Source: Alphaproteobacteria bacterium GWC2_42_16
GTDB lineage: Bacteria; Pseudomonadota; Alphaproteobacteria; UBA9655
DNA length: 64,000 bases
Direction: 5' to 3'
Assembly: GCA_001767835.1 (NCBI GenBank)
Contig: MEMA01000052.1
Location: 5,753 to 69,752 of the forward strand
Shown here: positions 20,468 to 61,200 of the stretch, one piece after another
Position numbering within the stretch: the stretch's first letter is position 1
Layout: each line of letters starts with the position of its first letter
Program-made: the position numbers and the translations under genes
The notes under the pieces: generated by a model
Database searches by the model: none
The model's input: only the letters and a program-made list of their open reading frames with translations
Told to the model about the DNA's origin: nothing

Positions 20468-23035
20468 ATGAATTTAAATCAATATACGGAACGCTCTCAA
20501 GGTTTTATCCAATCAGCCCAAACCCTTGCTCAACGTGAGGGTCACCAGCGTATTCTTCCCCTTCATTTATTAAAGGTGTTGCTCGATGACGAGGAAGGGC
20601 TCTGCGCGAGCTTAATTCGATCTGCTGGGGGAGATGCAAAAAATGCCCTTGAACGTACCAACGACGAGATGGGTCGTCTTCCCAAAGTTGGTGGCAGTGG
20701 CGCGGGCCAAGTCTTTCTTTCCCCTGAATTAACCAAAGTTTTTGAGCTCGCGGAAAAGGAAGCAAAAAAAGCTGGTGATACTTTTGTTACAGTAGAATAC
20801 CTCTTACTTGCCTTAGCCCTTTCCAAAGAGACAGATGCGCATAAGATTTTAGACTCCTCTGGCTTGGCTCCTGAAAAACTTAAATTGGCTATTGAGACCA
20901 TGAGGAAGGGGCGGCGCGCCGACACTGCCACGGCTGAATCCCAATATGATGCCCTCAAGAAATATGCAACCGACATGACCGCACTAGCCCGCCAAGGTAA
21001 GCTCGATCCTGTAATCGGCCGAGATGAAGAAATACGCCGCACCATTCAAGTTCTCTCTCGCCGCACCAAGAATAATCCCGTACTGATAGGGGAACCGGGG
21101 GTGGGGAAAACTGCCATTATTGAAGGCCTTGCCCATCGTATTGTCAAGGGGGACGTCCCCGAGACCCTTAAGGATACGCAATTGATGGCCCTTGATATGG
21201 GCGCCTTAATTGCTGGCGCTAAATACAGAGGTGAGTTTGAAGAGCGACTTAAGGCCGTGCTCTCGGAAATTATGCATGCAGAAGGTGATATTATCCTCTT
21301 CATTGATGAGCTTCACACCCTTGTGGGCGCGGGAAAGGCGGAAGGGTCTATGGATGCCTCCAACATGCTTAAACCTGCTCTTGCCCGCGGCGAACTCCAT
21401 TGCGTAGGCGCTACCACCCTTGATGAATATCGCAAACATATTGAAAAAGATGCGGCCCTTGCGCGCCGCTTCCAGCCCGTTTTTATAAGTGAACCCACCG
21501 TAGAAGATACGATTTCAATTTTACGCGGACTTAAAGAAAAGTATGAGGTCCACCATGGGATCCGTATCACAGATGGGGCCATTGTGGCAGCGGCCACCCT
21601 TTCCAACCGATATATCACCGATCGGTTTCTCCCCGATAAAGCAATTGACCTCATGGATGAAGCAGCAAGCCGCCTCCGCATGGAGGTGGATTCAAAACCG
21701 GAAGATATTGATGAGTTGGATCGCCGGATTATCCAGCTTAAAATTGAGCGAGAAGCGCTGAAGAAAGAAAAGGATCAGCCTTCAAAGGATCGCCTTGAGA
21801 AACTTGAGAAAGAGTTGGCTGACCTTGAATCCCAATCAAGCGTTCGCACGGCTGCTTGGCAAGCTGAAAAAGACAAATTGACCAGCTCCCAAAAGTTGAA
21901 GGAAAGCCTTGATAAGGCCCGCAATGAGCTTGAAATTGCTCAACGGAAAGGCGACCTCTCAAAAGCTGGAGAGTTGATGTATGGCGTAATTCCTGATTTA
22001 GAGAAAAAGTTGAAAGACGCTGAAGGGCAATCCCAAGACCGAATCATACGTGAAGAAGTCACTGCCGATGACATTGCAGGCATTGTCTCCCGCTGGACAG
22101 GAATTCCTGTTGATAAAATGCTGGAAGGAGAACGAGAAAAGCTCCTTCACATGGAAGAGAATCTGCGTAAACGCGTTGTAGGGCAAGATGAAGCTATTAC
22201 TGCCATCAGCCAAGCAGTCAGACGCGCTCGTGCGGGCCTTCAAGATGTGAACCGGCCGATCGGCTCTTTCCTCTTTCTTGGACCAACCGGCGTTGGGAAA
22301 ACCGAGCTGAGTAAAGCCCTTGCGGAATTCCTTTTTGATGATGACACGGCCATGATCCGCATTGATATGTCCGAGTTTATGGAAAAGCATTCCGTTGCGC
22401 GTCTTATTGGGGCCCCGCCTGGTTATGTAGGCTATGAGGAAGGTGGTACCTTAACCGAGTCAGTACGTCGCCGCCCCTATCAAGTTGTCCTCTTTGATGA
22501 AATTGAAAAGGCTCATCCGGATGTCTTCAATGTTCTCCTTCAAGTTTTGGATGATGGGCGCCTTACCGATGGGCAAGGACGCACCGTGGATTTTCGAAAT
22601 ACCCTCATCATTCTCACTTCAAATCTTGGTAGCTCCGTTTTAGCGGAGCACCCGGGTGAGCCTTCTGAAAAAGTCCGCGAACAAGTAATGGAAATGGTAC
22701 GGGCAGCCTTCCGTCCTGAATTTTTAAATCGTATTGATGAGATCTTGCTCTTCCGTCGTCTCTCGCGCGAGGACATGAATGGCATTGTGAAGATCCAGCT
22801 CCAGCGCCTTTCAAACCTTCTTAAGGATCGAAAGATTACTCTTAACCTCGATGATTTAGCACTCACCTGGCTTGGAGATCAAGGATACGATCCTACCTAT
22901 GGCGCGCGTCCCTTGAAACGAGTCATCCAAAAGGAACTGCAAAATACCCTTGCTGTCATGGTTTTGGAAGGCAAAATTAAAGACGGCCAAAAGGTGAAAG
23001 TCACCACCGATAAAAAAGGGCTTGTGATCGGGTAG
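20468..23035 (+). CDS. clpB: Chaperone ClpB
   Basis: Two AAA modules (GEPGVGKT and GPTGVGKT) with a coiled-coil middle domain; 855 aa. Confidence 0.95.
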
Positions 23036-23171
23036 ATCATCGTGAAAAATTTTAGATAAAATTGCAAAAATAGAATATATTTTTGGCACAATTTTATCTT
23101 GACTCGCACTTCAAGTATATACATTGTTTTGTGTAATAACTTTTTAAAAACCTAAAAGATAAAGGTATCTT

Positions 23172-24086
23172 ATGCGTGAGCGGTTGAGTTTAAATATTAG
23201 TGTCGCTCGATCTTGTTTTGTTAAATGTTTGGGCTGTTACAATCATTTTGGAAATAGCCCTAATTTAATAAGTACAGAGAATATCCTTTCTTTTTTAAGT
23301 GCTGCAAAAAAGAGAGGATTTACTAAAGTTACCCTTTGTGGCGGAGACCCCCTCTCTAGACCAAACATTACAGATCTATTAAAAAAAATAAACACACTAG
23401 GTTTTTTTATATCTCTCGACACTGTTGGGACTCCGATTCTGAGGGAAGCCAAAACTATATTTTATGGAAGTTCTTTAATAAGCAAGGTTGATGAAGCTGA
23501 TTTAGCAAAATATGTTGATTTAATTGGCATTCCATTAGATGGTCCTTCTAATGAGATCATTAGTCTTTTTAGGACAGAGCGCGTTAACCAGTTTGATGAA
23601 CAAATGCTTATTCTAGAAAAGCTCTCTGCAGCACAAGCCAAAATTTGCATTAATACTCTTGTTTACAAAGGAAACATTAATTATGTAGAAGAAATATTGC
23701 CAATTATAAAGAATTTCGACGGAATTAAGAAATGGCAAATATTTCAATTTATGCCAATTGGTCCCCTGGGATATAAAAATAGAAATATTTATGAAGTAAG
23801 CGATGAAGATTTTTTCTTGTTAAGAAATAGAATGAAAAAATATAAAGAGGAGCTATCCAAGCATATAAAATTAGAATTTAAAGCAAAGGCAGAGAGAAAA
23901 GGAAATTACATGTTTATTGATTCTGAAGGTTTGGCATGGGTACCTAACATTGCAATGAACGAAGAATGGAATGAACAAACAGATTCTACTCACAAGAGAC
24001 TTATTGTTGGTGATATAAATATTCCTGAAGATCACAAAAAAATTCTAGAGAGAGCTTTACACCCAAAGTCAATTAATATTGAATAA
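23172..24086 (+). CDS. Radical SAM enzyme, viperin (RSAD2)-like; candidate prokaryotic viperin
   Basis: A CX3CX2C cluster motif sits at aa 15-22 (RSCFVKCLGC) and a GGDP SAM-binding motif at KVTLCGGDPL. Segment-by-segment resemblance to viperin: DLIGIPLDGPSNEI, ICINTLVYKGN, KKWQIFQFMPI (compare RWKVFQCLLI), EVSDEDFFLL, and NYMFIDSEG. The gene is AT-rich. Confidence 0.6.
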   Translation: MRERLSLNISVARSCFVKCLGCYNHFGNSPNLISTENILSFLSAAKKRGFTKVTLCGGDPLSRPNITDLLKKINTLGFFISLDTVGTPILREAKTIFYGSSLISKVDEADLAKYVDLIGIPLDGPSNEIISLFRTERVNQFDEQMLILEKLSAAQAKICINTLVYKGNINYVEEILPIIKNFDGIKKWQIFQFMPIGPLGYKNRNIYEVSDEDFFLLRNRMKKYKEELSKHIKLEFKAKAERKGNYMFIDSEGLAWVPNIAMNEEWNEQTDSTHKRLIVGDINIPEDHKKILERALHPKSINIE

Positions 24087-24139
24087 GTTTCTGGCGATAT
24101 ACAAAATTATTCTGAAAATGTTATGTAAAACTTCTTTTA

Positions 24140-27100
24140 TTACAGAGTGAGCTTGTTAAGTTTAGCTTTAATCCTTATAAAATGAGGGGAGTCTTCTGGA
24201 AAATGAGCTTGAATAACTTCTAGCGCTTGCTTTAGATAATCAACGGATTGCTTTTTAAAGATTTCAGATTGTTGCATATCTTCCTTATTTATATGCTCAA
24301 AGGTTTCTTTTAGATACAGATCAGATAAGATTTCTAAGCATACGTAACTTTCCGCATATTTCTTAATTTGAAATATTCTTAAAGCCTTCTTAATGAGATT
24401 TTCAGCGGTTTTTATATCATTTTCTAACATATAGACTTGCCCAAGATTCATTATAACAGGAGCAACATCAATATGATCTTTGCCATAGGTCTTCTCATAA
24501 GTTTGAAAACTACGTTCAAGTAAATCTTTTGCTTTCTCATAGTTGCCTTGCTCTCTATAAACACTTCCTAGTCCTGCTAAAACCAGCGCAAACCAGGGAT
24601 GGTTTTCAAAATGGTTCCACCTATAAATCATAAGACTTTCTTCAAGGGATTGCTTTGCTTTCTCATAATTACCCATTTCTTTATAAATACTTCCTAAATG
24701 CTCCAAAGTCCGGGCAAACCATGGATGGTTTTCATACGAATTCTTCTTATAAACCATAAGGCTTTCTTCAAAGAGTTGTTTTGCCTTCTCATAATTACCT
24801 TGTTCTTTATATACACTTCCTAACCCTACTAGAGCCCGAGCAAACCACGGATGGTTTTCATAGGAATTTTTCTTATAAATCACGAGACTCTCTTCAAGGA
24901 GTTGTTTTGCTTTCTCATAGTTACCTTGCTCTCTATAAAGATTTCCCAACCATACCAAAGTCCAGGCAAACCAGGGCTGAGCTTCATGGGAGTTCTTTCT
25001 ATAAATCAAAAGACTTTCTTCAAGGAGTTGTTTTGCTTTCTCATAGTTACCCTGGTCTCTATAAACACTTCCTAGCCAAGCCAAAGCCCTAGCAAACCAA
25101 GGATTGTTTTCATAGGAATTTTTTCTATATATTACAAGACTTTCTTCAAGGAGTTGTCTTGCTTTCTCATAATTGCATTGCTCTCTATAAATGCTACCTA
25201 AACGTCCCAAAGCCTGAGCAAACCAAGGGTGGTTTTCATAGGAATTCTTTTTGTAAATCACAAGGCTTTCTTCAAAGAGTTGTTTGGCCTTCTCATAATT
25301 GCCTTGCTCTCTATAAACATTTCCGAGCCATCCCAAAGTCCGAGCAAACCAGGGGTGGTTTTCATAGGAACTCTTCCTATAAATTAAAATACATTGCTCT
25401 AGGAGTTGTTTTGCTTTCTCATAGTTGCCTTGGTCACTATAAACACACCCTAAACACCCCAAAGCTTTAGCAACCCAAAAATGGTTTTTATGAAAATTCT
25501 TTTTATAAATTGCAATACTTTGTTCAAAGAGTTGTTTTGCCTTCCCATAATTGCCGAGATCCCTATAAACATTTCCTAATTCACTACCTATAGAAGCTAT
25601 AACAAAATCTGTTAATAAATTAGGATGACTTAAAAACATTTCACAATGTCTTATGACAAAGCTCATTTTAGCAAAATCTTCCTTATCTATCACTTCACCA
25701 ACATAATTCTTAAACGCAGTTCCAATGGGTTCTATAAAACGTTTATTCTTTTCTGAGTTCTGTAATTTTGTAAGATAAGCTAGGGCTATAGCTTGGGTGC
25801 TCCGATGTATAGAAAAGGCTGGGATTGAACCAGAAGGAAGAACTACTTCATTTGTGACAAAAGAATGTTTTTTCAAGTTATAAATAAAATTATCAACCAC
25901 AGTACTTGTCTTGTACTTGTCTAATAAATCTCTTGGAATGTTCTGAGAATCGAGAAGACTGATAAACAATAAAAGATCCCAAAAATCCTTGTGGGAATTG
26001 ATAATATGTTGCAAAGATAAAGTGATGATCCCATAGCGAGTTTTAGTATAGTAACTTGCTTCCTCTAAAAGACTTTGTTGTACACTTTCAAAGTCTCTAT
26101 CATATTGGATGAGCTTCTCAAGATATGTCCCGTATGGTACATTTGTGGCCTTCAAGTAATAAGCAGCAATGGATACATCCAAAGGAAAAGGGGGAATATC
26201 ATTTAAAAACTTTTTTGCTTGCTCGGTTTGGGTAGCCGTGAATTTACTCGAATTTCCATTGGTCATAATCTTAACAAAGAGAGCTAGTTTGTCTTCAGGA
26301 GATAGCTCCCCTATTTGAATTGCTTCGTTAATATTGTTGTTATTTTTAATATTATTATCTCTTGTAATAAGGATTACTTTTCCTCTTCCCCAAACACTCG
26401 GATCATGGGGGAAAGACTTTTGGATATCCTTAAATTTTTCTACATTATCATAAATCAATATCCAATTTGGAATACGCTTTAATTTATCTCTCACAAAGAA
26501 AATAATCTTTTTTTCTCTTTCATCAGCGTTTTTAATATCCTTAATGCCCCTCACTTTTTCTTTCTCTGCTTCTGTTATGGCCAGAGCTTCAGCAAGATTT
26601 TCAAATGAATTAATCAGCTTGTCCTCTGACTCAGCATTAATTTCCCAAACTACCTTGGCATTTTGTTGACGCGTGTAATGTCGAGCGAGGGTTGTTTTAC
26701 CAGCACCTCCCATTCCTGTAAGAGCTATGGCTTGGATTTCATGATGTCCTTTTAAGCTTTTATCAATTCTTTCCATTAAATAAGGCCGATCTAAGAATAC
26801 GGATTGAGTAGGAATACTCAGATCATCTCTAACAGCTATACCATAATCCAAGGCTTTGTTTTGCGCGGACCCGCCTTCTTTTTTTTCAACAAAGGTTAAA
26901 AACCAAACGCAAAGAACCGCTATGCTTAATACGCTTCCTATAAAAAAGGATTTCTTTCTCAAATTCTTAGTATTGAAAAAATTGCTGATATACACCCTCA
27001 ATTGAGACACTAGGCCTATGCCTGACAAAGTTTTATCTTCTTGATGCAATTGCTTGTGCACTATATCTGAAGCACCACAAATTGATTCATAATGACTTTT

Positions 27101-27895
27101 AAAGTCTAAGATAATTTGGTCTAAAGCTATGTTTGGCAATAGTCTTTTTAAGACTGCGAAAGTAAAGTCATAATAATTTTCTCGCCGTAAATTATGTACA
27201 CATGCCATATTACCACGGTCTTGAAAAATATCATTTTTGATATTTTTGCTTGGGAATAGCGCAATAATACTATTTTGTGTTTTCCTGATTTTCTGTATGA
27301 AGGAAGTGACGTCTCGCTTATTTTTATTATCTACTCCTTCAACCTGCTCAATCATTGCTTCTGGAATAGCATAAATAATCAATTCGGATTTCAGCGTTTC
27401 GGTATTATTAACAGGATCTTTAATAAATATTTTACCTTCTCTGGCTTCAATGAATATCGTAACACCAGCTAGGTTTAGATGACTTTCTAGATAACGAATG
27501 AAAGAGGAGTGATATTCTTGATCCCGCCAATATACAATCACACAGGTAGGTTGCTCAGGATCAAGTTGGTCAGCAATTTTTAATAACTGTTCTTCAAAAG
27601 ATGCCCGAATTAATAAACTCAGGTAATGTTCTTTTAGCAGGGAAAGTTTCTTAGACTTTTCGATAAAATATATGATTCCATCCCGAGAATTACACTCCAG
27701 CTTCATCATGATGTTACGCATGTGAGCTTCGATTGTTTTCGGAGAAATAAATAGGCATGCGGCTATGGTTTTTGCCGATTTTCCGCTGAGAAGATAAGCC
27801 ATGATATCTATTTCTCTACATGTGAATTTAATTTCATTCACAATTTGCAAGTGTGATTCATAAATATCTTGAGGTAAGATAATATTGGCTTTCAT
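24140..27895 (-). CDS. STAND NTPase: N-terminal LuxR/GerE HTH, alpha/beta domain of unknown type, predicted TM helix, NB-ARC ATPase, and about 10 TPR units
   Basis: HTH: REIDIMAYLLSGKSAKTIAACLFISPKTIEAHMRNIMMKL (aa about 26-66). Hydrophobic helix: FFIGSVLSIAVLCVWFLTFV (aa about 316-336). NB-ARC: P-loop GMGGAGKTT (aa 394-402), Walker B WILIYDNV, and ILITRD. TPR: 42-aa units NHPWFARxLxxLGxVYREQGNYEKAKQLLEESLVIYKKNSYE. Confidence 0.8.
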   Translation of the reverse strand: MKANIILPQDIYESHLQIVNEIKFTCREIDIMAYLLSGKSAKTIAACLFISPKTIEAHMRNIMMKLECNSRDGIIYFIEKSKKLSLLKEHYLSLLIRASFEEQLLKIADQLDPEQPTCVIVYWRDQEYHSSFIRYLESHLNLAGVTIFIEAREGKIFIKDPVNNTETLKSELIIYAIPEAMIEQVEGVDNKNKRDVTSFIQKIRKTQNSIIALFPSKNIKNDIFQDRGNMACVHNLRRENYYDFTFAVLKRLLPNIALDQIILDFKSHYESICGASDIVHKQLHQEDKTLSGIGLVSQLRVYISNFFNTKNLRKKSFFIGSVLSIAVLCVWFLTFVEKKEGGSAQNKALDYGIAVRDDLSIPTQSVFLDRPYLMERIDKSLKGHHEIQAIALTGMGGAGKTTLARHYTRQQNAKVVWEINAESEDKLINSFENLAEALAITEAEKEKVRGIKDIKNADEREKKIIFFVRDKLKRIPNWILIYDNVEKFKDIQKSFPHDPSVWGRGKVILITRDNNIKNNNNINEAIQIGELSPEDKLALFVKIMTNGNSSKFTATQTEQAKKFLNDIPPFPLDVSIAAYYLKATNVPYGTYLEKLIQYDRDFESVQQSLLEEASYYTKTRYGIITLSLQHIINSHKDFWDLLLFISLLDSQNIPRDLLDKYKTSTVVDNFIYNLKKHSFVTNEVVLPSGSIPAFSIHRSTQAIALAYLTKLQNSEKNKRFIEPIGTAFKNYVGEVIDKEDFAKMSFVIRHCEMFLSHPNLLTDFVIASIGSELGNVYRDLGNYGKAKQLFEQSIAIYKKNFHKNHFWVAKALGCLGCVYSDQGNYEKAKQLLEQCILIYRKSSYENHPWFARTLGWLGNVYREQGNYEKAKQLFEESLVIYKKNSYENHPWFAQALGRLGSIYREQCNYEKARQLLEESLVIYRKNSYENNPWFARALAWLGSVYRDQGNYEKAKQLLEESLLIYRKNSHEAQPWFAWTLVWLGNLYREQGNYEKAKQLLEESLVIYKKNSYENHPWFARALVGLGSVYKEQGNYEKAKQLFEESLMVYKKNSYENHPWFARTLEHLGSIYKEMGNYEKAKQSLEESLMIYRWNHFENHPWFALVLAGLGSVYREQGNYEKAKDLLERSFQTYEKTYGKDHIDVAPVIMNLGQVYMLENDIKTAENLIKKALRIFQIKKYAESYVCLEILSDLYLKETFEHINKEDMQQSEIFKKQSVDYLKQALEVIQAHFPEDSPHFIRIKAKLNKLTL
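24400..25410. repeat. Tandem 126-bp (42-codon) near-identical repeats encoding the TPR array
   Basis: The motif ggttttcatagg recurs at exact multiples of 126 bp (positions about 24853, 25105, 25231, 25357). The translated units are nearly identical. Confidence 0.85.
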
Positions 27896-27985
27896 AAGAA
27901 TAAAATTTCTACATTTTTTCTCAGTATTATGCAGTTATACCTAAAAGGTTCAAGTTATTTTTACGTCAAGCTACTAAGTGATTTT

Positions 27986-28006
27986 CCCTTAGTCCTGTCC
28001 TAAGGG
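27986..28006. promoter_or_regulatory. Perfect 7-7 inverted repeat CCCTTAG-N7-CTAAGGG in a divergent promoter region (candidate HTH operator)
   Basis: cccttag at 27986-27992 and ctaaggg at 28000-28006. Extra CTAAG/CTTAG copies lie at 27974-27978 and 28051-28055, the latter within a second tttcccttag. The site sits between the divergent genes 24140-27895 (-) and 28083-28679 (+). Confidence 0.45.
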
Positions 28007-28082
28007 TATTCCCAGAATGACTAAACATACACTATTTTGCTAAAATTTCCCTTAGCATTTGAACGATTAAAGCTGAACTTTA

Positions 28083-28679
28083 ATGACAGGTAAATTATAT
28101 ATGTTTATCTCTATTGAACCAACAGAATATTATTATCACAAGGACATTTTGGAGCCATTTCTTGGCTATATCAAAGAAAATCCTAGCCTTAGATGGTCTT
28201 TTGAGAACCATAAAAATGCTATCTTTATTGTCTCTCTAGATGAGGCAAGAAGCATTTATGGAGGAGCTATGCTTCTTAAAGAAAAATTTAGTTCGTTACC
28301 TAGAGAAGTCCAAAAGAATATGAAAAATCTTGGGTTAATCAATAAAAATGTATGGACCTGCACCACCCTTCTTTATAAAAAGAATAATTATTCCGATCAG
28401 TGTGAATTCTTTTTCGAGACATTTTATCGAGATCTTTATAGGAAACTTGTTGAATTTGGAGTAAAAGAGAAAACGGGTTTTTTATACATGATGTTAGAAC
28501 CTGGCGAATATTTTTGTACTGAGGTCCTAGGCTGTTGGCCTTATATCAATAAAATTAAACTGCATGATTCTTTGAAAGACCTCTCTCATGGAGTTTTATC
28601 TCTAAGGGAAAATCAATCGCAATCCCATATAAAAACTGGGAGAAAGAAATTTCCTAAGGAGATAAAATTGGCGGCTTAG
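28083..28679 (+). CDS. Hypothetical protein (198 aa), no confident family assignment
   Basis: Clean AT-rich ORF followed by a strong terminator. Only a vague GNAT/LuxI-like secondary-structure pattern is visible (FFFETFYRDLYRKLVEFGVKEKTGFLYMML). Confidence 0.5.
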   Translation: MTGKLYMFISIEPTEYYYHKDILEPFLGYIKENPSLRWSFENHKNAIFIVSLDEARSIYGGAMLLKEKFSSLPREVQKNMKNLGLINKNVWTCTTLLYKKNNYSDQCEFFFETFYRDLYRKLVEFGVKEKTGFLYMMLEPGEYFCTEVLGCWPYINKIKLHDSLKDLSHGVLSLRENQSQSHIKTGRKKFPKEIKLAA

Positions 28680-28709
28680 CCTCCCTGTTCATAGCTGCCG
28701 TAAACTAAC

Positions 28710-28759
28710 GGAGAGATCTAAGAGTTTTATTGTGGTATAGATCTCTCCATATTTTTTTT
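28710..28759 (+). terminator. Rho-independent terminator
   Basis: An 11-bp stem (ggagagatcta ... tagatctctcc) with a 17-nt loop, followed by atatttttttt. Confidence 0.7.
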
Positions 28760-28815
28760 AATTGTAGGGAGTCGTTCTTAGGATTACTCTGAACCCCACA
28801 AAAACCAGAGGGAGA

Positions 28816-29224: not shown

Positions 29225-29638
29225 TTGATGATCCGCGTACGAAAATTTAGAATGGAAAAGCTGGTTCGAGACAAAATGGCCGAAAAATTTCAAAAAAGAG
29301 GAGGCCGCTTAAAGCTTCGGACTTTAACTCCCCAAGATTTCCAAATTCAGCTATTAGAGAAACTCAAAGAAGAAGTTGCAGAAGTCATACATTCTGTCAC
29401 ACAAGAAGAGCTTTGTGAGGAAATGGCTGATCTCTTAGAGGTTATGCGTGCCCTTGCTAACATGAAACAAATTCCTTGGAGAGATATTGAACACATGCGT
29501 CTTGAAAAGAAAAAAACAAAGGGAGGTTTTGAAAAAGCAATTTTCGCTGAGTTTGTCGAGCTTGACTCAAAGGATCATCCCGGCATCGATTATTGTCTCA
29601 AACATCCCCAAAAATACCCAGAAGTTTTTGATTTTTAA
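29225..29638 (+). CDS. MazG-like / phosphoribosyl-ATP pyrophosphohydrolase-like NTP pyrophosphatase
   Basis: KLVRDKMAEKF N-terminus, then a helical EEVAEV...EEMADLLEVMRAL pair of acidic metal-binding helices. Confidence 0.6.
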   Translation: MMIRVRKFRMEKLVRDKMAEKFQKRGGRLKLRTLTPQDFQIQLLEKLKEEVAEVIHSVTQEELCEEMADLLEVMRALANMKQIPWRDIEHMRLEKKKTKGGFEKAIFAEFVELDSKDHPGIDYCLKHPQKYPEVFDF

Positions 29639-29997
29639 ACCACATCTATCAGGACAGAAATTTTGTCGATAACTTCAGTTATAACGTCTAAAGGGACTTT
29701 TCCTTCAAATTTGGCCTTCCTTACCCTCCAATCTAAGCTTTTAATTTGATCCGCAAGCACAACGCCTTTAATGGCTCCGTGAGAAGGGAGCTGAACTTCA
29801 AAGGGATATCCTTTTTTATGACTTGTGATAGGACACAATAAAGCCAGACCTACTTTTTTGTTATAGGTAAGGGGAGAAATCACTAAAGCAGGACGGGTCT
29901 TTCTGATTTCTGAGCCCTGGCTCGGATCAAGATCAATCCAAACAATATCCCCTCGTTCAGGAAAATAGTCTTTTTGTTTACCAAGACTCTTTGCCAC
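29635..29997 (-). CDS. mazF: Type II toxin, MazF/PemK family endoribonuclease
   Basis: RGDIVWIDLDPSQGSEIRKTRPALVISP...LLCPITS...VVLADQIKSLDW. Confidence 0.88.
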   Translation of the reverse strand: MAKSLGKQKDYFPERGDIVWIDLDPSQGSEIRKTRPALVISPLTYNKKVGLALLCPITSHKKGYPFEVQLPSHGAIKGVVLADQIKSLDWRVRKAKFEGKVPLDVITEVIDKISVLIDVV

Positions 29998-30208
29998 GAG
30001 AAGGCCCTATCTGAACTTCTTTATGAATATTATCTGGGGATACTTGATCAAGTAATGACTCGAGAGAGTAACTTTTACTAATAACGATGCGATGATCCTG
30101 AAGAGAAACATCGACAGAGGTTCCTGCGTGGATGCCAATCTTATCAGCCAAAACACGTGGTATCCTCAGGCCTAAGCTATTGCCCCATTTTGTAACATGG
30201 CTTTGCAT
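29978..30208 (-). CDS. mazE: Type II antitoxin, MazE (AbrB/SpoVT fold)
   Basis: VTKWGNSLGLRIPRVLADKIGIHAGTSVDVS. The gene overlaps mazF by 20 nt. Confidence 0.85.
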   Translation of the reverse strand: MQSHVTKWGNSLGLRIPRVLADKIGIHAGTSVDVSLQDHRIVISKSYSLESLLDQVSPDNIHKEVQIGPSRGKESW

Positions 30209-32288: not shown

Positions 32289-32362
32289 TGGCTGGGGGAC
32301 CTGGATTCGAACCAGGGCTGCCCGGTCCAGAGCCGGGAGTTCTACCGCTAAACTATCCCCCA
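32289..32362 (-). tRNA. tRNA-Gln (anticodon CTG)
   Basis: Hand-folded cloverleaf: tggggga / tccccca acceptor stem, cccgg-CTCTGGA-ccggg anticodon arm, cctgg-ttcgaat-ccagg T-arm, and an encoded GCCA end. Confidence 0.9.
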
Positions 32363-39799: not shown

Positions 39800-41572
39800 C
39801 TAGTTCCAGACATCGTAGTAGTCTAGTGGCGGAGGGCTAGGAGAACGTGATGGTAAGGGGCTCGACCGATTAGTCTCCGTCTCATCATCTTTACTATTCT
39901 CTGACTGATTTGAAGTACTAACTAAAGCTATTTCGAATGGTTCATAAGGGTGGACAAGAGAGAAAGTCTCATTGTCAGAAAGCCTCAATGAATTAGTTTT
40001 ATCCTCTTCGTCAGTATCTTTAATGGTCTCTTTCTTATCATCTGCAGCGTCAGAACTCCTCTCGTTTCTGCTGTCTGATGACGAGCCTGAATCATCAGAC
40101 CTTTCATCGTCGCGCTTTTCATCATTCCCTCCAACAACAGCAGAATGTGAATCACCTCCAAAAAAGCGCGCCCATAAGCTCGGCTTTTTTTCCTTTTTAT
40201 CCTTCTTGACTGGGGTCTCTTTTTCATTCCCCAAAGGAGAACTATGTGAAGACAAGGGTGGTGAGGATGATGCGGACGGAGATGGAAAATCATCAATATC
40301 TGAAAAATTTTCAACTGGAATAGAGCTGTTTTTGCTGGAAAGCTGGCGTGGAAGAAATGAAGGAAAACTAAGACGTGATGCCGGAGAAAAATGTCTCCTC
40401 ACTCCAAATGGCGAGAATACCCCTGAAGCCGGTCCACCAAGAGCAGCTGGAAAAACAAGTAATGGGCTACGACCTCCTGAGCTGCTGCCTGAGGAACTAC
40501 TAGAAGCGGAGATAACAACAGGTGGAGCCACAGGTACGCCTCCTCCAGGAACTGGTACAGGCGCAGGAACTGGTGCTGGTGCGGGAACAGGAGCTGGCGC
40601 AGGAACGACTGCAGGACCAGGCGCAGGTACAGGTCCACCAAGCACTGGAACGGGGGCAGGAGGAGGTGCAGGTATTGCGGGACCTGGCGCCGGGACAGGA
40701 GCGACTGCAGGAGGCGCAACTACTACTGCGGGCCTAGGAGCGGGAGCAGCGGCAGGTATAGGCACGGCTACAGGTGCAGGTGGGAGCACGGGTATGGCTG
40801 CAGGCGCAGGTATAGCAGGAGCTGGCGCCGGGACAAGAACGACTGCAGGAGGTGCAATTACCACTGCAGGCATAGGAGCGGGAGCAGCGGCAGGTATAGG
40901 CACGGCTACAGGTGCAGGTGGGAGCACGGGTATGGCTGCAGGCCCAGGAGCAAGTCCACCAGGCACTAGAACAGGGGCAGGAGGAGGTGCAGGTATGGCA
41001 GGAGCTGGCGCCGGGACAGGAGCGACTGCAGGAGGCGCAACTACTACTGCGGGCCTAGGAGCGGGTGCCGCAGATGCTGGAACGACTTCAGGAGCAGGTG
41101 CAAATGCAGGAGAAGCTCCCCTAAAGGCTTCAGGCATTGGATTCGATTCTGCATTTCGAGAAGAAGATTGGCTATTTTGAGGGGCAGGGAGCTTTCTTTT
41201 TCCTGAGAGCTCCACTGCTTGAGGGAACTCTTGCATAGGCTCCTCCGGAGTAAACTCTACACGCTTACCCTTTGGAAAATGAATGGGGTTATTCCTTGCA
41301 GAAACAGATTCCGCCTCATGCCGAGGCAATTTCACAGGTGAAGGCCCTCCTCCCTTTGAAGAAGTTGAGGTTCCTTTTCCAAAACTTTCACTATGTCCAC
41401 CTCCTAATCCCCACCTAGAATCGAGGGTAATTTTCTCCTTCCCTTCAGAGGGATGAGAAAACTCTAAAAAAGGCATTATTTTTTCAGGGCGTAATAATAG
41501 GTAAATCAAAATAAGAATTGAGGCATATGCCAATTTTCGACTACCATCACGCCAATATATACTTTTCACCAT
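39800..41572 (-). CDS. Membrane-anchored or secreted Pro/Ala/Val-repeat low-complexity protein with a Ser/Asp/Glu-rich C-terminal half
   Basis: 590 aa. N-terminal hydrophobic helix LAYASILILIYLLL, about 200 aa of (A/V/I)PAP-type repeats, a poly-Ser stretch, and an acidic tail. The ORF fills the whole gap between neighbouring genes. Confidence 0.6.
   Translation of the reverse strand: MVKSIYWRDGSRKLAYASILILIYLLLRPEKIMPFLEFSHPSEGKEKITLDSRWGLGGGHSESFGKGTSTSSKGGGPSPVKLPRHEAESVSARNNPIHFPKGKRVEFTPEEPMQEFPQAVELSGKRKLPAPQNSQSSSRNAESNPMPEAFRGASPAFAPAPEVVPASAAPAPRPAVVVAPPAVAPVPAPAPAIPAPPPAPVLVPGGLAPGPAAIPVLPPAPVAVPIPAAAPAPMPAVVIAPPAVVLVPAPAPAIPAPAAIPVLPPAPVAVPIPAAAPAPRPAVVVAPPAVAPVPAPGPAIPAPPPAPVPVLGGPVPAPGPAVVPAPAPVPAPAPVPAPVPVPGGGVPVAPPVVISASSSSSGSSSGGRSPLLVFPAALGGPASGVFSPFGVRRHFSPASRLSFPSFLPRQLSSKNSSIPVENFSDIDDFPSPSASSSPPLSSHSSPLGNEKETPVKKDKKEKKPSLWARFFGGDSHSAVVGGNDEKRDDERSDDSGSSSDSRNERSSDAADDKKETIKDTDEEDKTNSLRLSDNETFSLVHPYEPFEIALVSTSNQSENSKDDETETNRSSPLPSRSPSPPPLDYYDVWN
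40540..41100. repeat. GC-rich long direct repeats (units about 46 codons) inside the Pro/Ala-rich gene
   Basis: The string gcaggtataggcacggctacaggtgcaggtgggagcacgggtatggctgcagg occurs twice (about 40753 and 40890). The string ggagcgactgcaggaggcgcaactactactgcgggcctaggagcggg also occurs twice (about 40699 and 41020). Confidence 0.8.
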
Positions 41573-52501: not shown

Positions 52502-52578
52502 GCGCCCTTAGCTCAGTTGGATAGAGCGTCGGCCTTCTAAGCCGCAGGTCGCAGGTTCGAATCCTGCAGGGCGCGCCA
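52502..52578 (+). tRNA. tRNA-Arg (anticodon TCT)
   Basis: Hand-folded cloverleaf: gcgccct / agggcgc acceptor stem, anticodon loop cTTCTaa, gcagg-ttcgaat-cctgc T-arm, and an encoded CCA. Confidence 0.9.
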
Positions 52579-52605: not shown

Positions 52606-54123
52606 CTATGTAGCTTGTGGGGGCTCGGTTTTTTCTTGGTATAATTTAGAAAGCCCTTTCACAGCCCCCATCCATATCAGCATAATAAAAATAAGGACCC
52701 CACTTAAGTAAGGCATAATCGTCATTTGCGTGCCTGCAGTTAGTATCAAAAGGAAGATTTGAATAATCCCCCCACTTGATTTTCCAAAACGGCTGAAAAT
52801 CACATCTACAGCAGCCTTGCCCTTCACTTTGAGCTCTTGGTCAAGGGGGATGTAGGTCATTTCCTTTGTTGGATCGAAAAGAGAGTATTTCATACTCTTA
52901 CCTAGAATATTCTGAATAGCTCCGACATAAACGGCCATTAAAAGAGAAGTGACCCCAAAAAGAAGAAGGAGCCCTTCGAGGTAATCTTTAAAAAGAATGA
53001 AGGAGAAGAAGAGGATCGTTGTGATGAGAAAAACAGAAGGGGTCACCATAGCGCCAACAAACCAACCAAAACGCCGAACAATTCCCTTTGTTAAAAGAAT
53101 AAAAATGACAGTCGAAATGCCGGTCCAAAATGAGAAATTTGCCATAAATGAAAAATAATCATTAGGTTCTGGGAAGTTCTCTTTCACTTGGCTTTTCCAG
53201 GTGACATCGATGATGTTGGCCGTGATGCCATAACTGATCACAAGAAGGGCGATAAAGCCTAAGTATTTTGATGTCAAAAGGTACCGGAGACTCTCTGAGA
53301 GGGAGAGTTTCGGGGTCAGATTTTCTTTTTTATTGCCAACACGAGCAGCAGCATCGTAATAGCGAGGATCTGTTAACACATAACGATCCATCCATTTGTA
53401 AAGTAAAAGGACTCCTATTCCAGAAACAATAACAGCCGTGATTAAATAAAGGATGTTTAAAGCCCAAGCTTCCGATTGAGATGAAAGTTGTTTGTTTAAA
53501 TTTACTAGATACTGCCCAAAGGTCCCGGCTGAAATAAGAGCAAAGTTCCCCAGGAACCCAAAAAAAGAATAAAAGCGCTTGGCCTCATTGGTGCGTGTAA
53601 TTTCATTTGCAAACTGCCAAAAAAGTAAATTAACAACGATGCTCCCATAAAGGTCGGAGAAAAGATAAAAAAGAGCAAAGGACCAAATACCATAAAGGGA
53701 AATAAACCATTTTAAATGAGGGCATGTCTCTCTTAAAATAAAGATGGTTTCTTCGGATGGGTGCAAGAACTCTCGATTGGGATAAATATAAAGAGCAAAA
53801 GCAGCAAAGAAAAGAAGGTAGGGGATCAAGCAAGCATAAAAAAGGTGCGCCCGACCTAACACGTTGCTTAACTTTGCATAAAGAAAGAAAAAAAGAAAAG
53901 CGATGGGTACGTCCCAAAGCTTGATAAAAGAAATGACCTCAGCACCGCAAGACGGTGCTGTGATCACAAGTGCATCCTTTGTATTCCGCAGAAGTGTATA
54001 ACTAAAGAGAACTAAAAACATCATCCCTCCCATGGGTAGAAATTTTTTTAGTTCACTGTTTTGAATTGGCCAAAGGGCTGCGCGAAACTTAGAAAACTCC
54101 GGACCTGCAGAGGAGTCAGACAT
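52606..54123 (-). CDS. tlc: ATP/ADP translocase (Tlc/NTT nucleotide transporter family)
   Basis: Characteristic N-terminus (FSKFRAALWPIQNSELKKFLPMGGMMFLVLFSYTLLRNTKDALV). About 12 TM helices; 505 aa. Confidence 0.88.
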   Translation of the reverse strand: MSDSSAGPEFSKFRAALWPIQNSELKKFLPMGGMMFLVLFSYTLLRNTKDALVITAPSCGAEVISFIKLWDVPIAFLFFFLYAKLSNVLGRAHLFYACLIPYLLFFAAFALYIYPNREFLHPSEETIFILRETCPHLKWFISLYGIWSFALFYLFSDLYGSIVVNLLFWQFANEITRTNEAKRFYSFFGFLGNFALISAGTFGQYLVNLNKQLSSQSEAWALNILYLITAVIVSGIGVLLLYKWMDRYVLTDPRYYDAAARVGNKKENLTPKLSLSESLRYLLTSKYLGFIALLVISYGITANIIDVTWKSQVKENFPEPNDYFSFMANFSFWTGISTVIFILLTKGIVRRFGWFVGAMVTPSVFLITTILFFSFILFKDYLEGLLLLFGVTSLLMAVYVGAIQNILGKSMKYSLFDPTKEMTYIPLDQELKVKGKAAVDVIFSRFGKSSGGIIQIFLLILTAGTQMTIMPYLSGVLIFIMLIWMGAVKGLSKLYQEKTEPPQAT

Positions 54124-54141: not shown

Positions 54142-54219
<78 letters not shown>

Positions 54220-59622: not shown

Positions 59623-61200
59623 ATGTTCCATTTAAAAAGGTTTAGACCAACACTTTTCATAGCCGTTGCCACTTTTTGTTCAGGAATACTGATACCAATA
59701 AACTCCTATGCGGTTTGGTCTGATGAAGAGTCCTCTGATGAATCTGATAGTGAAGAGAGCCGAAGCCCTGTGATAGCAGCCCCTTCTGGCAGTTCTTCTT
59801 CTCCTTCGTCCTATAGACCCTATCTTTCTGAAAAGTCAACTATAGACGACGCTATAGAAAAATCGAAAACGATAAGATCTTGTTACGACAGGGGTTTAGC
59901 AACAACTCCTGAAGATATAGCTGATTTTTGGAAGGAAGTAATCACTAGATTTCCCTTCGATTCCCAATTTATTGATGAAAAAAAAGAAGTTCATAAGATT
60001 CTTAAAGAGGGAGTCAAGACATATCGCGGAAAAAAATTTGATGCCTTTCTAAAGTGTTATGAACTCCTTCCCCCTAAGAGCCTTGACGCTGAAGACCACA
60101 GATATGTGGCTACTCTTTATACTAATTTTGCCAAAACGAGCATTGGAATAGATACAGAGACAAAACGCAAGGAATATTATAAGAAGGCTATACAAATTTG
60201 GGAAGTACTTATAAGAGGAGGCTATGGAACGCTTGCCGAAGATTATAGAACGGCCGCCAATTGTTGTTATTACTTCAATAAGGATAAAAGAGCGGCTGAA
60301 TTAATTACCATAGCTCTGTCGATGTTCGAGAATCAAAGTCCTCCCCATAAAACAACATGGGATCCAAGTTCTTACGAATACGATCACCAACTCAAAAAAG
60401 ATCGTGAATTAGCCTTTAGAATTTATTTTTTTGCAAAAGAATGGGCCAAAACGACACAAACCTGGGAACGAATGGGTAAGAAAGCTAACTATGACTCAAA
60501 TGATTATAGAAAAGCGGCTAAAGCCTATTTTGCACTTAAGAAATATCAGGAGGCTGCTGAATGGAGTGAAAAAGCTTTAGGGCTTGAGTTTCAACATATA
60601 TCCTATCACCCAAAAACAACTAAATCTTTTTATGCTGCAGATCTTGCGAGGACTGCACATACCCAAAGACGCGCAGGAAATTATGAGAGAGCTGAAGAGC
60701 TATGGGACAAATTTTATGCCCTTGATAGAGATGACGATAGGGGGGAAACGAATGAACAACGTTTAGAAAACCTTAGAGAAGCTGCTGAAGTCTATTATCA
60801 TAACGGCAAATATAAAGAGGCTGCAAGGAAATGGCAAGATGCATACGAAAAAGCATACGAAAAAAAAGATACCGCCATGTGGGATGATCGGCTGAAAGCT
60901 GCACAAGCCTGGTTCAAGTGTTCCAACCTTTTTGATTGTGATAATGGTAGGGTTATATGCGAAGGCTTCATCAATGGCACCATAGAAAATAAAGAGATCT
61001 ATATTCCCAACGAAGCCGGAAAATATGTTACAGAGACCATCAAACTGCCGGGACTCACACCGGAGTTACAGGAGCGTGCGAAAAAATTATTAGAGGCAAA
61101 CCCTTCCAAACTATGGAAGGACGATAAGTCCGGTTCTTCGAATATGAGCTCTTCAACAAAGAAGAATGGCCTTTTTAGCAAATGCTGGAGGAAAAAATAA
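59623..61200 (+). CDS. Secreted hypothetical protein: acidic Ser-rich N-terminal region plus TPR/Sel1-like helical repeats
   Basis: Signal peptide (LFIAVATFCSGILIPINSYA), then SDEESSDESDSEESRS. Recurrent Y/W-rich helix pairs follow (GNYERAEELWDKFYAL, GKYKEAARKWQDAYEKAYE). AT-rich. Confidence 0.5.
   Translation: MFHLKRFRPTLFIAVATFCSGILIPINSYAVWSDEESSDESDSEESRSPVIAAPSGSSSSPSSYRPYLSEKSTIDDAIEKSKTIRSCYDRGLATTPEDIADFWKEVITRFPFDSQFIDEKKEVHKILKEGVKTYRGKKFDAFLKCYELLPPKSLDAEDHRYVATLYTNFAKTSIGIDTETKRKEYYKKAIQIWEVLIRGGYGTLAEDYRTAANCCYYFNKDKRAAELITIALSMFENQSPPHKTTWDPSSYEYDHQLKKDRELAFRIYFFAKEWAKTTQTWERMGKKANYDSNDYRKAAKAYFALKKYQEAAEWSEKALGLEFQHISYHPKTTKSFYAADLARTAHTQRRAGNYERAEELWDKFYALDRDDDRGETNEQRLENLREAAEVYYHNGKYKEAARKWQDAYEKAYEKKDTAMWDDRLKAAQAWFKCSNLFDCDNGRVICEGFINGTIENKEIYIPNEAGKYVTETIKLPGLTPELQERAKKLLEANPSKLWKDDKSGSSNMSSSTKKNGLFSKCWRKK

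Follow-up and report, generated by a model that had tools for sequence, protein, structure and literature searches.

Regulators of the AfsR, MalT and LAL (large ATP-binding regulators of the LuxR family) types combine a DNA-binding domain, a STAND (signal transduction ATPase with numerous domains) NTPase and a tetratricopeptide repeat (TPR)-type sensor within one polypeptide, and AfsR has recently been analysed explicitly as a transcription factor of the nucleotide-binding leucine-rich repeat receptor (NLR) type. A protein that shares these three elements and an MHD-like histidine motif with such regulators is encoded in a 64,000-nt stretch of Alphaproteobacteria bacterium GWC2_42_16 (contig MEMA01000052.1, positions 5,753 to 69,752; this whole stretch is referred to below as the window), within an AT-rich island located between clpB and fdx. 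The island contains three genes, encoding a radical S-adenosylmethionine (SAM) enzyme (rSAM), a STAND protein of 1251 amino acids (aa) and a small protein apparently of LuxI/FeeM-type fold. We propose that they constitute a horizontally mobile regulatory cassette, consisting of an NLR transcription switch, a labile LuxI-fold protein and an accessory enzyme, and that this cassette occurs only in a clade of obligate intracellular alphaproteobacteria with affinity to Paracaedibacter and Caedibacter. To this explanation as a whole, the clade included, we give about an even chance of being correct.

A sequence-only reading of this DNA had placed the three genes at coordinates with which the list of open reading frames (ORFs) agrees (Table 1). 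The rSAM and STAND genes are convergent, the 53-nt gap claimed between them has the same value in the list, and the small gene, the "orphan" of that reading, is divergent from the STAND gene. The AT-rich block described between clpB and fdx is equally evident, the GC content being 0.30-0.38 in each 500-nt segment from 23000 to 28500, versus 0.44-0.52 on the left and 0.41-0.43 just to the right (whole cassette, 0.342; flanks, 0.456 and 0.432). Flanking direct repeats, an integrase and a tRNA were sought at the island borders as an insertion signature, and none was found; the closest tRNA is a tRNA-Gln at 32289-32362.

The cassette is not confined to this junction. rSAM homologues with 75-81% identity keep the order rSAM (+), STAND (-), ~192-aa gene (+) elsewhere, full cassettes occupy other junctions (Table 1, where loci from other genomes carry L numbers), and four further cassettes were inferred from homologue hit tables. 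The GC content of the cassette is 0.33-0.36 in every host examined, with flanks ranging from 0.37 to 0.46. Since the same low-GC cassette recurs in at least five unrelated neighbourhoods of related genomes, we consider it a mobile functional unit, in keeping with the earlier treatment of the three genes as one. The opposite view, that three unrelated accessory genes came together by chance in a variable region, could appeal to the independent promoter of the rSAM gene and to those cassettes that lack this gene. However, the recurrence of the same gene set in these neighbourhoods, together with the conservation of its intergenic DNA, effectively refutes it by synteny, and we regard a chance juxtaposition as scarcely credible.

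Some cassettes are reduced or altered, with the STAND gene and the small gene occurring as a pair, or with a different set of genes beside the STAND gene in the variant operon of L012 and L016 (Table 1). The 539-aa radical SAM protein of the L012 operon was rejected as a homologue of the window rSAM, since BLASTP aligned the cluster motif only (E 0.12). The kinases of the L016 operon have signal-peptide-like N-termini, and its adenylate kinase, which begins MMQRLILFISLIFFLFSSAEAQD, may be exported. At L018 (1-1875), two ORFs, which match residues 5-223 and 325-623, take the place of an intact STAND gene next to the small gene; either a pseudogene or an assembly error could explain the split. 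A search of PLSDB revealed no member of the small-gene family, and a phage search with the rSAM matched its N-terminal core only, in two Enterococcus phages. Carriage of the cassette by phages or plasmids was rejected, as PLSDB, phages and PHROGs yielded no meaningful homologues.

The proposed regulator and its operator-like palindromes

Profile searches against Pfam recovered the GerE, NB-ARC and TPR domains that the sequence-only reading had proposed for the STAND protein, as well as Radical_SAM for the first gene, and the membrane helix of the same proposal corresponds to a hydropathy peak that recurs among paralogues (Table 1). The TPR region matched TPR_12 (283 bits, E 6e-86) and TPR_10 (222 bits, E 2e-67) and comprises ~10 repeats. 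The NB-ARC domain contains a Walker A motif (GMGGAGKT at residue 394), a Walker B motif (ILIYDN) and an MHD-like IHR motif near residue 696, just downstream of the NB-ARC span; these motifs are kept in 118, 115 and 112 (the MHD-like histidine) of 118 paralogues, respectively. At the DNA level, a 300-nt stretch of the TPR region is present in seven copies, 71-77% identical, with a head-to-tail period of 126 nt (42 aa) between 24487 and 25542, which suggests a recent expansion or turnover of repeats in the sensor domain.

A search with the first 757 residues brought up over 450 proteins that share the GerE, NB-ARC and TPR architecture. Several copies per genome occur in Caedibacter sp. 38-128, Ca. 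Paracaedimonas acanthamoebae (on a plasmid), Ca. Paracaedibacter symbiosus and "Alphaproteobacteria bacterium 41-28". In a Caedibacter-like metagenome-assembled genome (MAG), three tandem LuxR-transmembrane-NB-ARC-TPR paralogues are located beside the type VI secretion system sheath genes VipA/VipB (L040, 6217-18149); the small divergent genes of this locus (286 and 226 aa) have no annotation and fall outside the family of the small gene of the window.

The alpha/beta domain situated between the helix-turn-helix (HTH) and the membrane helix gave no family match in Pfam. A profile built from 31 paralogues produced sub-threshold matches only against the PDB, 7 of 11 of them to Toll/interleukin-1 receptor (TIR) domains (TLR2, E 0.055; TRR2, 0.1; SARM1, 0.56), and no catalytic-type or acidic residue is conserved among the paralogues. 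A catalytic TIR was rejected on these two grounds, and we tentatively regard the domain as TIR-like and non-catalytic.

With the DNA-binding domain at the N-terminus, NB-ARC next and TPR last, the protein follows the order seen in AfsR. Nevertheless, the regulator differs from AfsR in having a LuxR/GerE HTH, the SARP (Streptomyces antibiotic regulatory protein; OmpR-type winged HTH) and BTAD (bacterial transcriptional activation) domains not being found in it, and in the TIR-like domain and transmembrane helix inserted between HTH and NB-ARC, whereas AfsR-type proteins are soluble. In MalT and the LAL regulators the LuxR HTH is C-terminal, whereas here it is N-terminal, and the NCBIfam scores are far below the cutoffs for both AfsR (85 bits versus 1430) and MalT (52 versus 537). 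The protein also differs from LuxR receptors, since its GerE domain is N-terminal and an NB-ARC-TPR module replaces the autoinducer-binding domain PF03472. A literature search retrieved no description of a LuxR-TIR-like-transmembrane-NB-ARC-TPR architecture or of its protein family, and we consider this architecture undescribed.

ToxR and CadC provide a further parallel at the level of predicted topology, with a cytoplasmic N-terminal DNA-binding domain, one transmembrane helix and a large outer C-terminal sensor. A transmembrane segment of variable sequence lies at a fixed place, ~76 aa before Walker A, in 109 of the 118 paralogues, and a second candidate segment is present in just 4 of 108. 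Of the two flanks of the segment, the N-terminal one has a net charge of +3.3 and the C-terminal one of +0.4; the N side is the more positive in 75 of 108 paralogues, as against 10 in which the C side is. Because of this bias, the positive-inside rule predicts that the HTH and the next ~240-residue domain are cytoplasmic and that NB-ARC-TPR lies outside, a topology derived from hydropathy and charge heuristics only. The HTH is of LuxR type, not the OmpR-type winged helix of ToxR and CadC, and the outer part would be a ~900-residue ATPase-TPR module, for which, on a bitopic transcription factor, we know of no precedent.

If this topology is taken literally, the cassette could encode a trans-envelope receptor, a specialised version of our proposal with a specific topology and input, in which a periplasmic NB-ARC-TPR module is exposed to host molecules and to host ATP/ADP that has passed the outer membrane, and relays the state of the host to the cytoplasmic HTH, which would turn this input into transcription of the labile LuxI-fold gene. 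The single helix with its charge bias is what such a receptor would show, and related NB-ARC/TPR proteins of 790-797 aa have signal-peptide- or anchor-like starts with Walker A only 78-82 residues in. The signal-peptide-like kinases of the L016 operon and the TLC ATP/ADP translocase encoded in the window would also fit, since with such a translocase host ATP would have to reach the periplasm. On the other hand, the receptor requires the export of a 900-residue TPR-rich domain, its topology comes from the heuristics mentioned above, the helix might serve as an anchor that does not span the membrane, and no extracytoplasmic STAND NTPase is known to us. We judge this version unlikely; if true, it would be the first extracytoplasmic STAND NTPase and a direct way for an intracellular bacterium to read host energy or state, and the expansion of the LuxR-STAND family would represent many parallel host-sensing channels.

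The region that separates the STAND gene from the small gene contains a predicted promoter for each of them and, as follows from the predicted promoter positions, operator-like palindromes between the two -35 boxes (Table 1). The CTTAG/CTAAG palindromes pointed out in the sequence-only reading include a perfect inverted repeat, CCCTTAG-N7-CTAAGGG, which has one match against 0.19 expected by chance. In an alignment of four cassettes, CTAAGGGA-TTT-TCCCTTAG followed by CCTTAGGGGTATTTCCAGAAT is conserved, although the cassette proteins are just 45-68% identical, and the TTCAAG box of the STAND promoter is invariant. A regular expression for the palindrome gave exactly one match per cassette at 9 loci, always upstream of the small gene. 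Such a layout is what one would expect if a dimeric LuxR-type HTH controlled two divergent genes. An inverted 14-nt copy of one operator half-site, CTAAGGGAAAATCA, is present 609 nt from the operator, within the 3'-terminal coding sequence of the LuxI-fold gene; it may have arisen by chance or may serve as a second binding site involved in looping.

In the mechanism we propose, the regulator would be a single-pass membrane NLR-type factor with its LuxR HTH and TIR-like domain in the cytoplasm, followed by the transmembrane helix, the NB-ARC switch and the TPR sensor. Its HTH would bind the palindromes between the divergent promoters. By homology with AfsR, MalT and other NLRs, binding of a ligand to the TPR array would lead to nucleotide exchange at the NB-ARC domain and to oligomerisation, and the switched regulator would then activate transcription of the LuxI-fold gene and of its own gene.

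The putative LuxI-fold partner

The divergent pair resembles LuxI/LuxR pairs (e.g. TraI/TraR) and FeeM in that a LuxI-fold gene lies beside a LuxR-HTH gene, with a ~20-bp lux-box-like inverted repeat in the promoter region. The 198-aa ORF previously assigned to the small gene (28083-28679) is present, with the difference that translation probably starts at 28101, because an MFxxIEP start is conserved among homologues; the protein would thus have 192 aa. The label "orphan" no longer applies, as an exhaustive profile search revealed a family of 172 representative clusters, whereas a word-index search had given six.

Searches of the small protein against Pfam, NCBIfam, PADLOC and PHROGs yielded nothing. 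Among 86 family members compared with Pfam there was no consistent family and no hit to Autoind_synth (PF00765), and profile searches against PDB sequences gave nothing significant, only TofI at E 0.84. The AlphaFold model of the protein (predicted local distance difference test score, pLDDT, 74; predicted template modelling score, pTM, 0.72) has a fold resembling that of Gcn5-related N-acetyltransferases (GNATs). Its best Foldseek matches in the PDB were FeeM (an N-acyl amino acid synthase), arylalkylamine acetyltransferases, BjaI and LasI (E ~1e-3, TM-scores 0.40-0.49), and GNAT toxins (AtaT, TacT) ranked below LuxI, FeeM and Dat. Moreover, hhalign related the family to a LuxI profile of five sequences (TraI and four annotated acyl-homoserine lactone synthases from plasmids) with 69% probability and E 4.4e-5 over 169 collinear columns covering both proteins, versus 1.3% over 23 columns for a control with generic GNATs. 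Nevertheless, the family differs from LuxI in having no Autoind_synth hit (0/86) and none of the SAM-binding and catalytic residues. With moderate confidence, we assign the small protein a LuxI/FeeM-type fold and do not regard it as an enzyme of the LuxI family.

A second difference from LuxI is the degron-like end of the protein. All 8 close homologues terminate in LAA, as do 20 of 155 family representatives, in which the residues before it vary, whereas none of 240 unrelated control proteins does; in the cassette loci, every LAA-ending ORF of 150 aa or more (13 in all) belongs to the small-gene family. Within the ssrA tag, it is the free C-terminal LAA that ClpX recognises. Because of this ssrA-like end, the small protein is predicted to be constitutively unstable: ClpXP would keep it short-lived, so that its level would closely track the activity of the regulator.

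Small-gene homologues are also found in other contexts. At L019 (8012-10585) and L021 (7886-10576), a protein of 160-172 aa consisting of an autoinducer-binding domain only, a peptide deformylase and a 216-223-aa XRE-like HTH gene are followed by the divergent homologue. The autoinducer-binding protein matches PF03472 (E 4e-9, 160 aa) and is two genes away from the small gene, which is a further likeness to LuxI/LuxR systems. More distant paralogues (24-28% identity) adjoin other NB-ARC/TPR proteins with signal-peptide-like starts. At L016 (14397-16769) and L021 (13336-15729), such proteins of 790-797 aa start with a signal-peptide- or anchor-like stretch and have their Walker A motif at residues 78-82; each gene overlaps an upstream gene of ~540-560 aa and is located near a distant paralogue of the small gene and an XRE-type HTH gene.

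The GNAT-like fold raises the possibility of an addiction or toxin module, in which a GNAT-fold toxin (e.g. an aminoacyl-tRNA acetyltransferase) or a host-directed effector would be governed transcriptionally by the STAND protein, the whole being selfish DNA. The similarity is, however, specific to the LuxI branch, as the hhalign comparison and the lower rank of the toxins in the fold list indicate, and inspection by eye did not reveal the GNAT acetyl-CoA motif (Q/RxxGxG/A) at the start of helix 3. No small antitoxin gene shares an operon with the LuxI-fold gene or precedes it. Lability is usually a property of the antitoxin in toxin-antitoxin (TA) systems, whereas here it is the candidate toxin that bears the degron-like end. 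The appearance of AtaT, TacT and other GNAT toxins among the fold hits, the mobility of the cassette and the nearby PemK/MazE pair would be in agreement with a toxin module, as would the richness in TA systems attributed to Paracaedibacter-like symbionts in one report (PMC8163844). Altogether we hold this explanation to be very unlikely.

The radical SAM enzyme and its relation to viperins

Viperins and their prokaryotic counterparts (pVips) share with the window rSAM a radical SAM core followed by a C-terminal extension and a W-x-x-FQ motif. The rSAM is a member of a distinct family whose ~300-aa proteins occur in Alphaproteobacteria, Verrucomicrobiota, Oligoflexia and Streptomyces-like actinomycetes; fusions to haloacid dehalogenase (HAD) phosphatase domains are seen in P0061, P0105 and P0111. 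The CxxxCxxC motif of the rSAM (C15/C19/C22) is invariant in 40 family members, as is K-W188-Q189-x-F-Q. When a profile of these 40 sequences was compared with the PDB, viperins came first (E ~1e-9) over nearly the full length, including the "RWKxFQ" region after the core, whereas PqqE, SkfB and MoaA aligned over the core only. The AlphaFold2 model (pLDDT 94) gave mouse viperin with CTP as its best Foldseek match (TM-score 0.69-0.71, 17% identity), and the top 16 PDB hits were all viperins (TM-score 0.62-0.76, E down to 7e-14), with SkfB and SuiB close behind.

The viperin-like character of this enzyme, proposed in the sequence-only reading, thus stands as regards the nearest relatives in sequence and fold, and fails as regards membership. 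The score against the NCBIfam viperin model (NF038283) was 65.3 bits, below the curated cutoff of 180, at an overall identity of ~17%; the PADLOC pVip models, which have no curated cutoff, gave 77 and 69 bits. The residues K220, N222, R245 and K247 of mouse viperin we take to be those of its nucleotide-triphosphate pocket. That location receives indirect support in one report (PMC11970327). Relative to the solved viperin of T. virens, FK-L-N becomes C159-I-N161 and R-W-K-x-FQ becomes K-W188-Q189-x-FQ, so that the K-x-N/R-W-K signature of viperins reads C-x-N/K-W-Q. Two basic residues are thus replaced, and within the family Q189 is invariant and C159 nearly so.

Outside the cassette clade (defined as at least 70% identity), rSAM relatives are located in biosynthetic-looking operons with no STAND gene (Table 1), and not in defence islands, which is another difference from viperins; their association with kinases and phosphatases is a likeness. 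Because of these operons, the most likely substrates of the family are small molecules of a phosphorylated, nucleotide-like or sugar-phosphate type. One branch appears to have been recruited into the cassette, where it is dispensable or replaced in some cases. The promoter-like block upstream of the rSAM gene is nearly invariant across four cassettes, including that of L033 with its other gene orientation. In our model, the rSAM joins the pair in one sub-clade under its own promoter and would probably convert a phosphorylated, nucleotide-like small molecule, and the rSAM and the LuxI-fold protein would make or modify the output or the signal of the circuit.

The sequence-only reading had seen in the rSAM and STAND genes the kind of pairing that is found in anti-phage defence islands. 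In such a system an Avs-like STAND protein would sense a phage protein through its TPRs, the rSAM would supply a chain-terminating 3'-deoxy-3',4'-didehydro (ddh)-nucleotide, and the HTH would induce a toxic effector of GNAT fold. The likeness to Avs is real, as both have a STAND NTPase, a C-terminal TPR sensor with a rapidly diversifying repeat array and a location in mobile DNA, and viperins are the closest relatives of the rSAM by profile, by fold and by the pVip models. Defence would also agree with a mobile, AT-rich island that has a MazG-like gene and a PemK/MazE pair as neighbours, with the presence of tRNA-acetylating GNAT toxins lower in the fold list, and with the other radical SAM, thymidylate-kinase-like and adenylate-kinase-like genes of L012 and L016, which recall the "viperins associated with kinases" of PADLOC.

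Each element of that system, however, meets an objection. PADLOC returned for the STAND protein no Avs, bNACHT or other defence-STAND match, only generic TPR models and weak matches to VakA, CARF-HTH and gop, and what it carries at the N-terminus is the HTH of a transcription factor, opposite a conserved operator, instead of a cell-killing nuclease, protease or NADase. The TIR-like domain has no conserved catalytic residue, and the small protein belongs with LuxI rather than with TacT or AtaT, being nearer to LuxI, FeeM and Dat, distant from generic GNATs in hhalign and without an upstream antitoxin. The rSAM falls below the viperin cutoff with two basic residues of the pocket motifs replaced, it is absent from some cassettes and its relatives reside in biosynthetic operons. 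There are no meaningful homologues in phages or plasmids, and the STAND family is expanded, with several tandem copies per genome in obligate endosymbionts. We consider anti-phage defence distinctly unlikely. A signal-responsive transcription switch fits better, in line with the second option of the sequence-only reading, a regulatory or host-interaction module of an intracellular bacterium. That reading had recognised no named system here, and PADLOC likewise gave no system-level match.

Host organism and biological meaning

Several observations weigh against our proposal of a regulatory cassette with a labile LuxI-fold partner. The structural model of the partner is of moderate quality, with correspondingly low TM-scores, and the hhalign probability is non-decisive, given a LuxI profile of five sequences only. 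Residues invariant in the alignment of those five synthases (R25, F29, W35, E44, D46, D49, R70, E101 and R104 in TraI numbering) are missing from the family of the partner: in the hhalign alignment, deletions cover the positions of R25, F29 and W35, and M, T and T stand opposite R70, E101 and R104, respectively; the partner may therefore be no enzyme at all. A Pfam scan of the STAND protein revealed no autoinducer-binding domain PF03472. The operator regular expression has no match upstream of the rSAM gene, so a control site of this kind was rejected there, and the operator-free promoter of this gene weakens the case for its control by the regulator. A divergent LuxR-STAND neighbour is present in 9 of 13 informative non-redundant small-gene loci, a count that is biased in that most loci were selected through the small-gene family, the sample of loci being small as well. 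The distant LuxR-STAND paralogues of L039 and L040 have no neighbour of this family, which rules out a universal pairing and therefore limits it to one clade.

Regarding the host, a contig of the MAG "Alphaproteobacteria bacterium RIFCSPHIGHO2_12_42_13" (GCA_001768775.1) has the same sequence as the window. A TLC ATP/ADP translocase is encoded in the window between the genes for tRNA-Arg (52502-52578) and tRNA-Pro (54143-54219), and the organism is therefore regarded as an obligate intracellular energy parasite, in agreement with the lifestyle guessed earlier. Eukaryote-like proteins of cassette-bearing genomes, one F-box-like and one with ankyrin repeats (L006, 1-1847; L033, 1-678), are consistent with a protist-associated lifestyle. 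Directly to the right of fdx is a second accessory patch (29225-30208, GC 0.37-0.41) containing a MazG-like gene and a PemK/MazE pair. Two lineage-specific genes lie elsewhere in the window, one for a 525-aa protein with a weak TPR_12 match (59623-61200, +) and one for a 590-aa protein that matched no Pfam family at E<=1e-5 (39800-41572, -).

Table 1. Coordinates and loci of the features described in the text.
Feature	Locus	Position	Strand	Remarks
AT-rich mobile island, full three-gene cassette	Window, clpB/fdx junction	23036-28815		From clpB stop to fdx stop; ~5.8 kb
clpB	Window	20468-23035	+	Left flank of island; ORF list
Promoter-like block upstream of rSAM gene	Window	23090-23130	+	Conserved; TTGACT (23099-23104) then AAGTATATACATTG
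rSAM, 304 aa, distant viperin relative	Window	23172-24086	+	Pfam Radical_SAM, E 1.9e-14
NLR/STAND-type regulator, 1251 aa	Window	24140-27895	-	LuxR HTH, TIR-like domain, transmembrane helix, NB-ARC, TPR
TPR_10/TPR_12 sensor array	Window	24356-25603	-	Residues ~765-1180; tandem 126-nt units
NB-ARC NTPase	Window	26153-26782	-	Residues 372-581; PF00931, E 7e-13
Single transmembrane helix	Window	26888-26950	-	Residues 316-336; Kyte-Doolittle hydropathy (19 residues) 2.44 (residues 318-336)
Alpha/beta domain without annotation, tentatively TIR-like or flavodoxin-like	Window	27200-27550	-	Residues ~116-232
GerE/LuxR-type HTH	Window	27671-27826	-	Residues 24-75; PF00196, E 1.5e-16
STAND promoter, predicted, sigma-70-type	Window	27926-27953	-	TTGAAC-16-CATAAT; consensus scan
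Operator-like palindromes	Window	27974-28006		CTAAGTGA-TTT-TCCCTTAG (27974-27992) overlapping CCCTTAG-N7-CTAAGGG (27986-28006)
LuxI-fold gene promoter, predicted	Window	28017-28046	+	ATGACT-18-TAAAAT with TG extension; consensus scan
Third half-site, TTCCCTTAG	Window	28047-28055	+	Directly after predicted -10 box; 4 copies in window versus 0.84 expected
LuxI/FeeM-fold (GNAT-like) protein, 192 aa, ending ...KLAA	Window	28101-28679	+	Probable start; longest ORF (198 aa) from 28083
Inverted perfect copy of operator half-site, 14 nt	Window	28602-28615		CTAAGGGAAAATCA; partner 27979-27992
fdx	Window	28816-29148/29172	-	Right flank of island; ORF list
MazG/PRA-PH-like gene	Window	29225-29638	+	Accessory patch right of fdx
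PemK toxin / MazE antitoxin pair	Window	29635-29997 and 29978-30208	-	Accessory patch right of fdx
TLC ATP/ADP translocase	Window	52606-54123	-	PF03219, 605 bits
Full cassette, same arrangement	L006, RPE65/ntrX junction			
Full cassette, same arrangement	L007, adenine glycosylase/FIST junction			
Full cassette, rSAM gene inverted	L033			rSAM gene co-directional with STAND gene
STAND and small gene pair without rSAM gene	L032			ntrX-side position as in L006
STAND and small gene pair only	L020			
Variant cassette operon	L012; L016	107-3442; 1061-4396		STAND, 539-aa weak radical SAM, thymidylate-kinase/deoxynucleoside-kinase-like gene, adenylate kinase
Operon with rSAM relative	L008	3996-9299		Thiamine pyrophosphate enzyme, HAD, rSAM, hydrolase, HAD, major facilitator superfamily transporter; extra class-Ib aminoacyl-tRNA synthetases
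Operon with rSAM relative	L009	8371-11428		PhyH, rSAM, cytidylyltransferase/phosphoenolpyruvate-mutase fusion, ABC transporter
Operon with rSAM relative	L011	8902-11544		Glycosyltransferase (GT4), rSAM, PIG-L
Operon with rSAM relative	L038	4511-8767		AAA_28 kinase-like, RibB-like, rSAM, short-chain dehydrogenase/reductase, HAD

NLR/STAND proteins have mostly been studied as immune sensors, and AfsR and MalT show that a role as transcription factors is possible. The combination of a radical SAM enzyme with a STAND protein should not automatically be taken as phage defence. If our proposal is correct, the cassette would tie an undescribed regulator to an unnamed LuxI-fold family with a putative built-in degradation tag and to a sister family of viperins, which is also found in phosphonate-like and sugar- or nucleotide-type biosynthetic operons.

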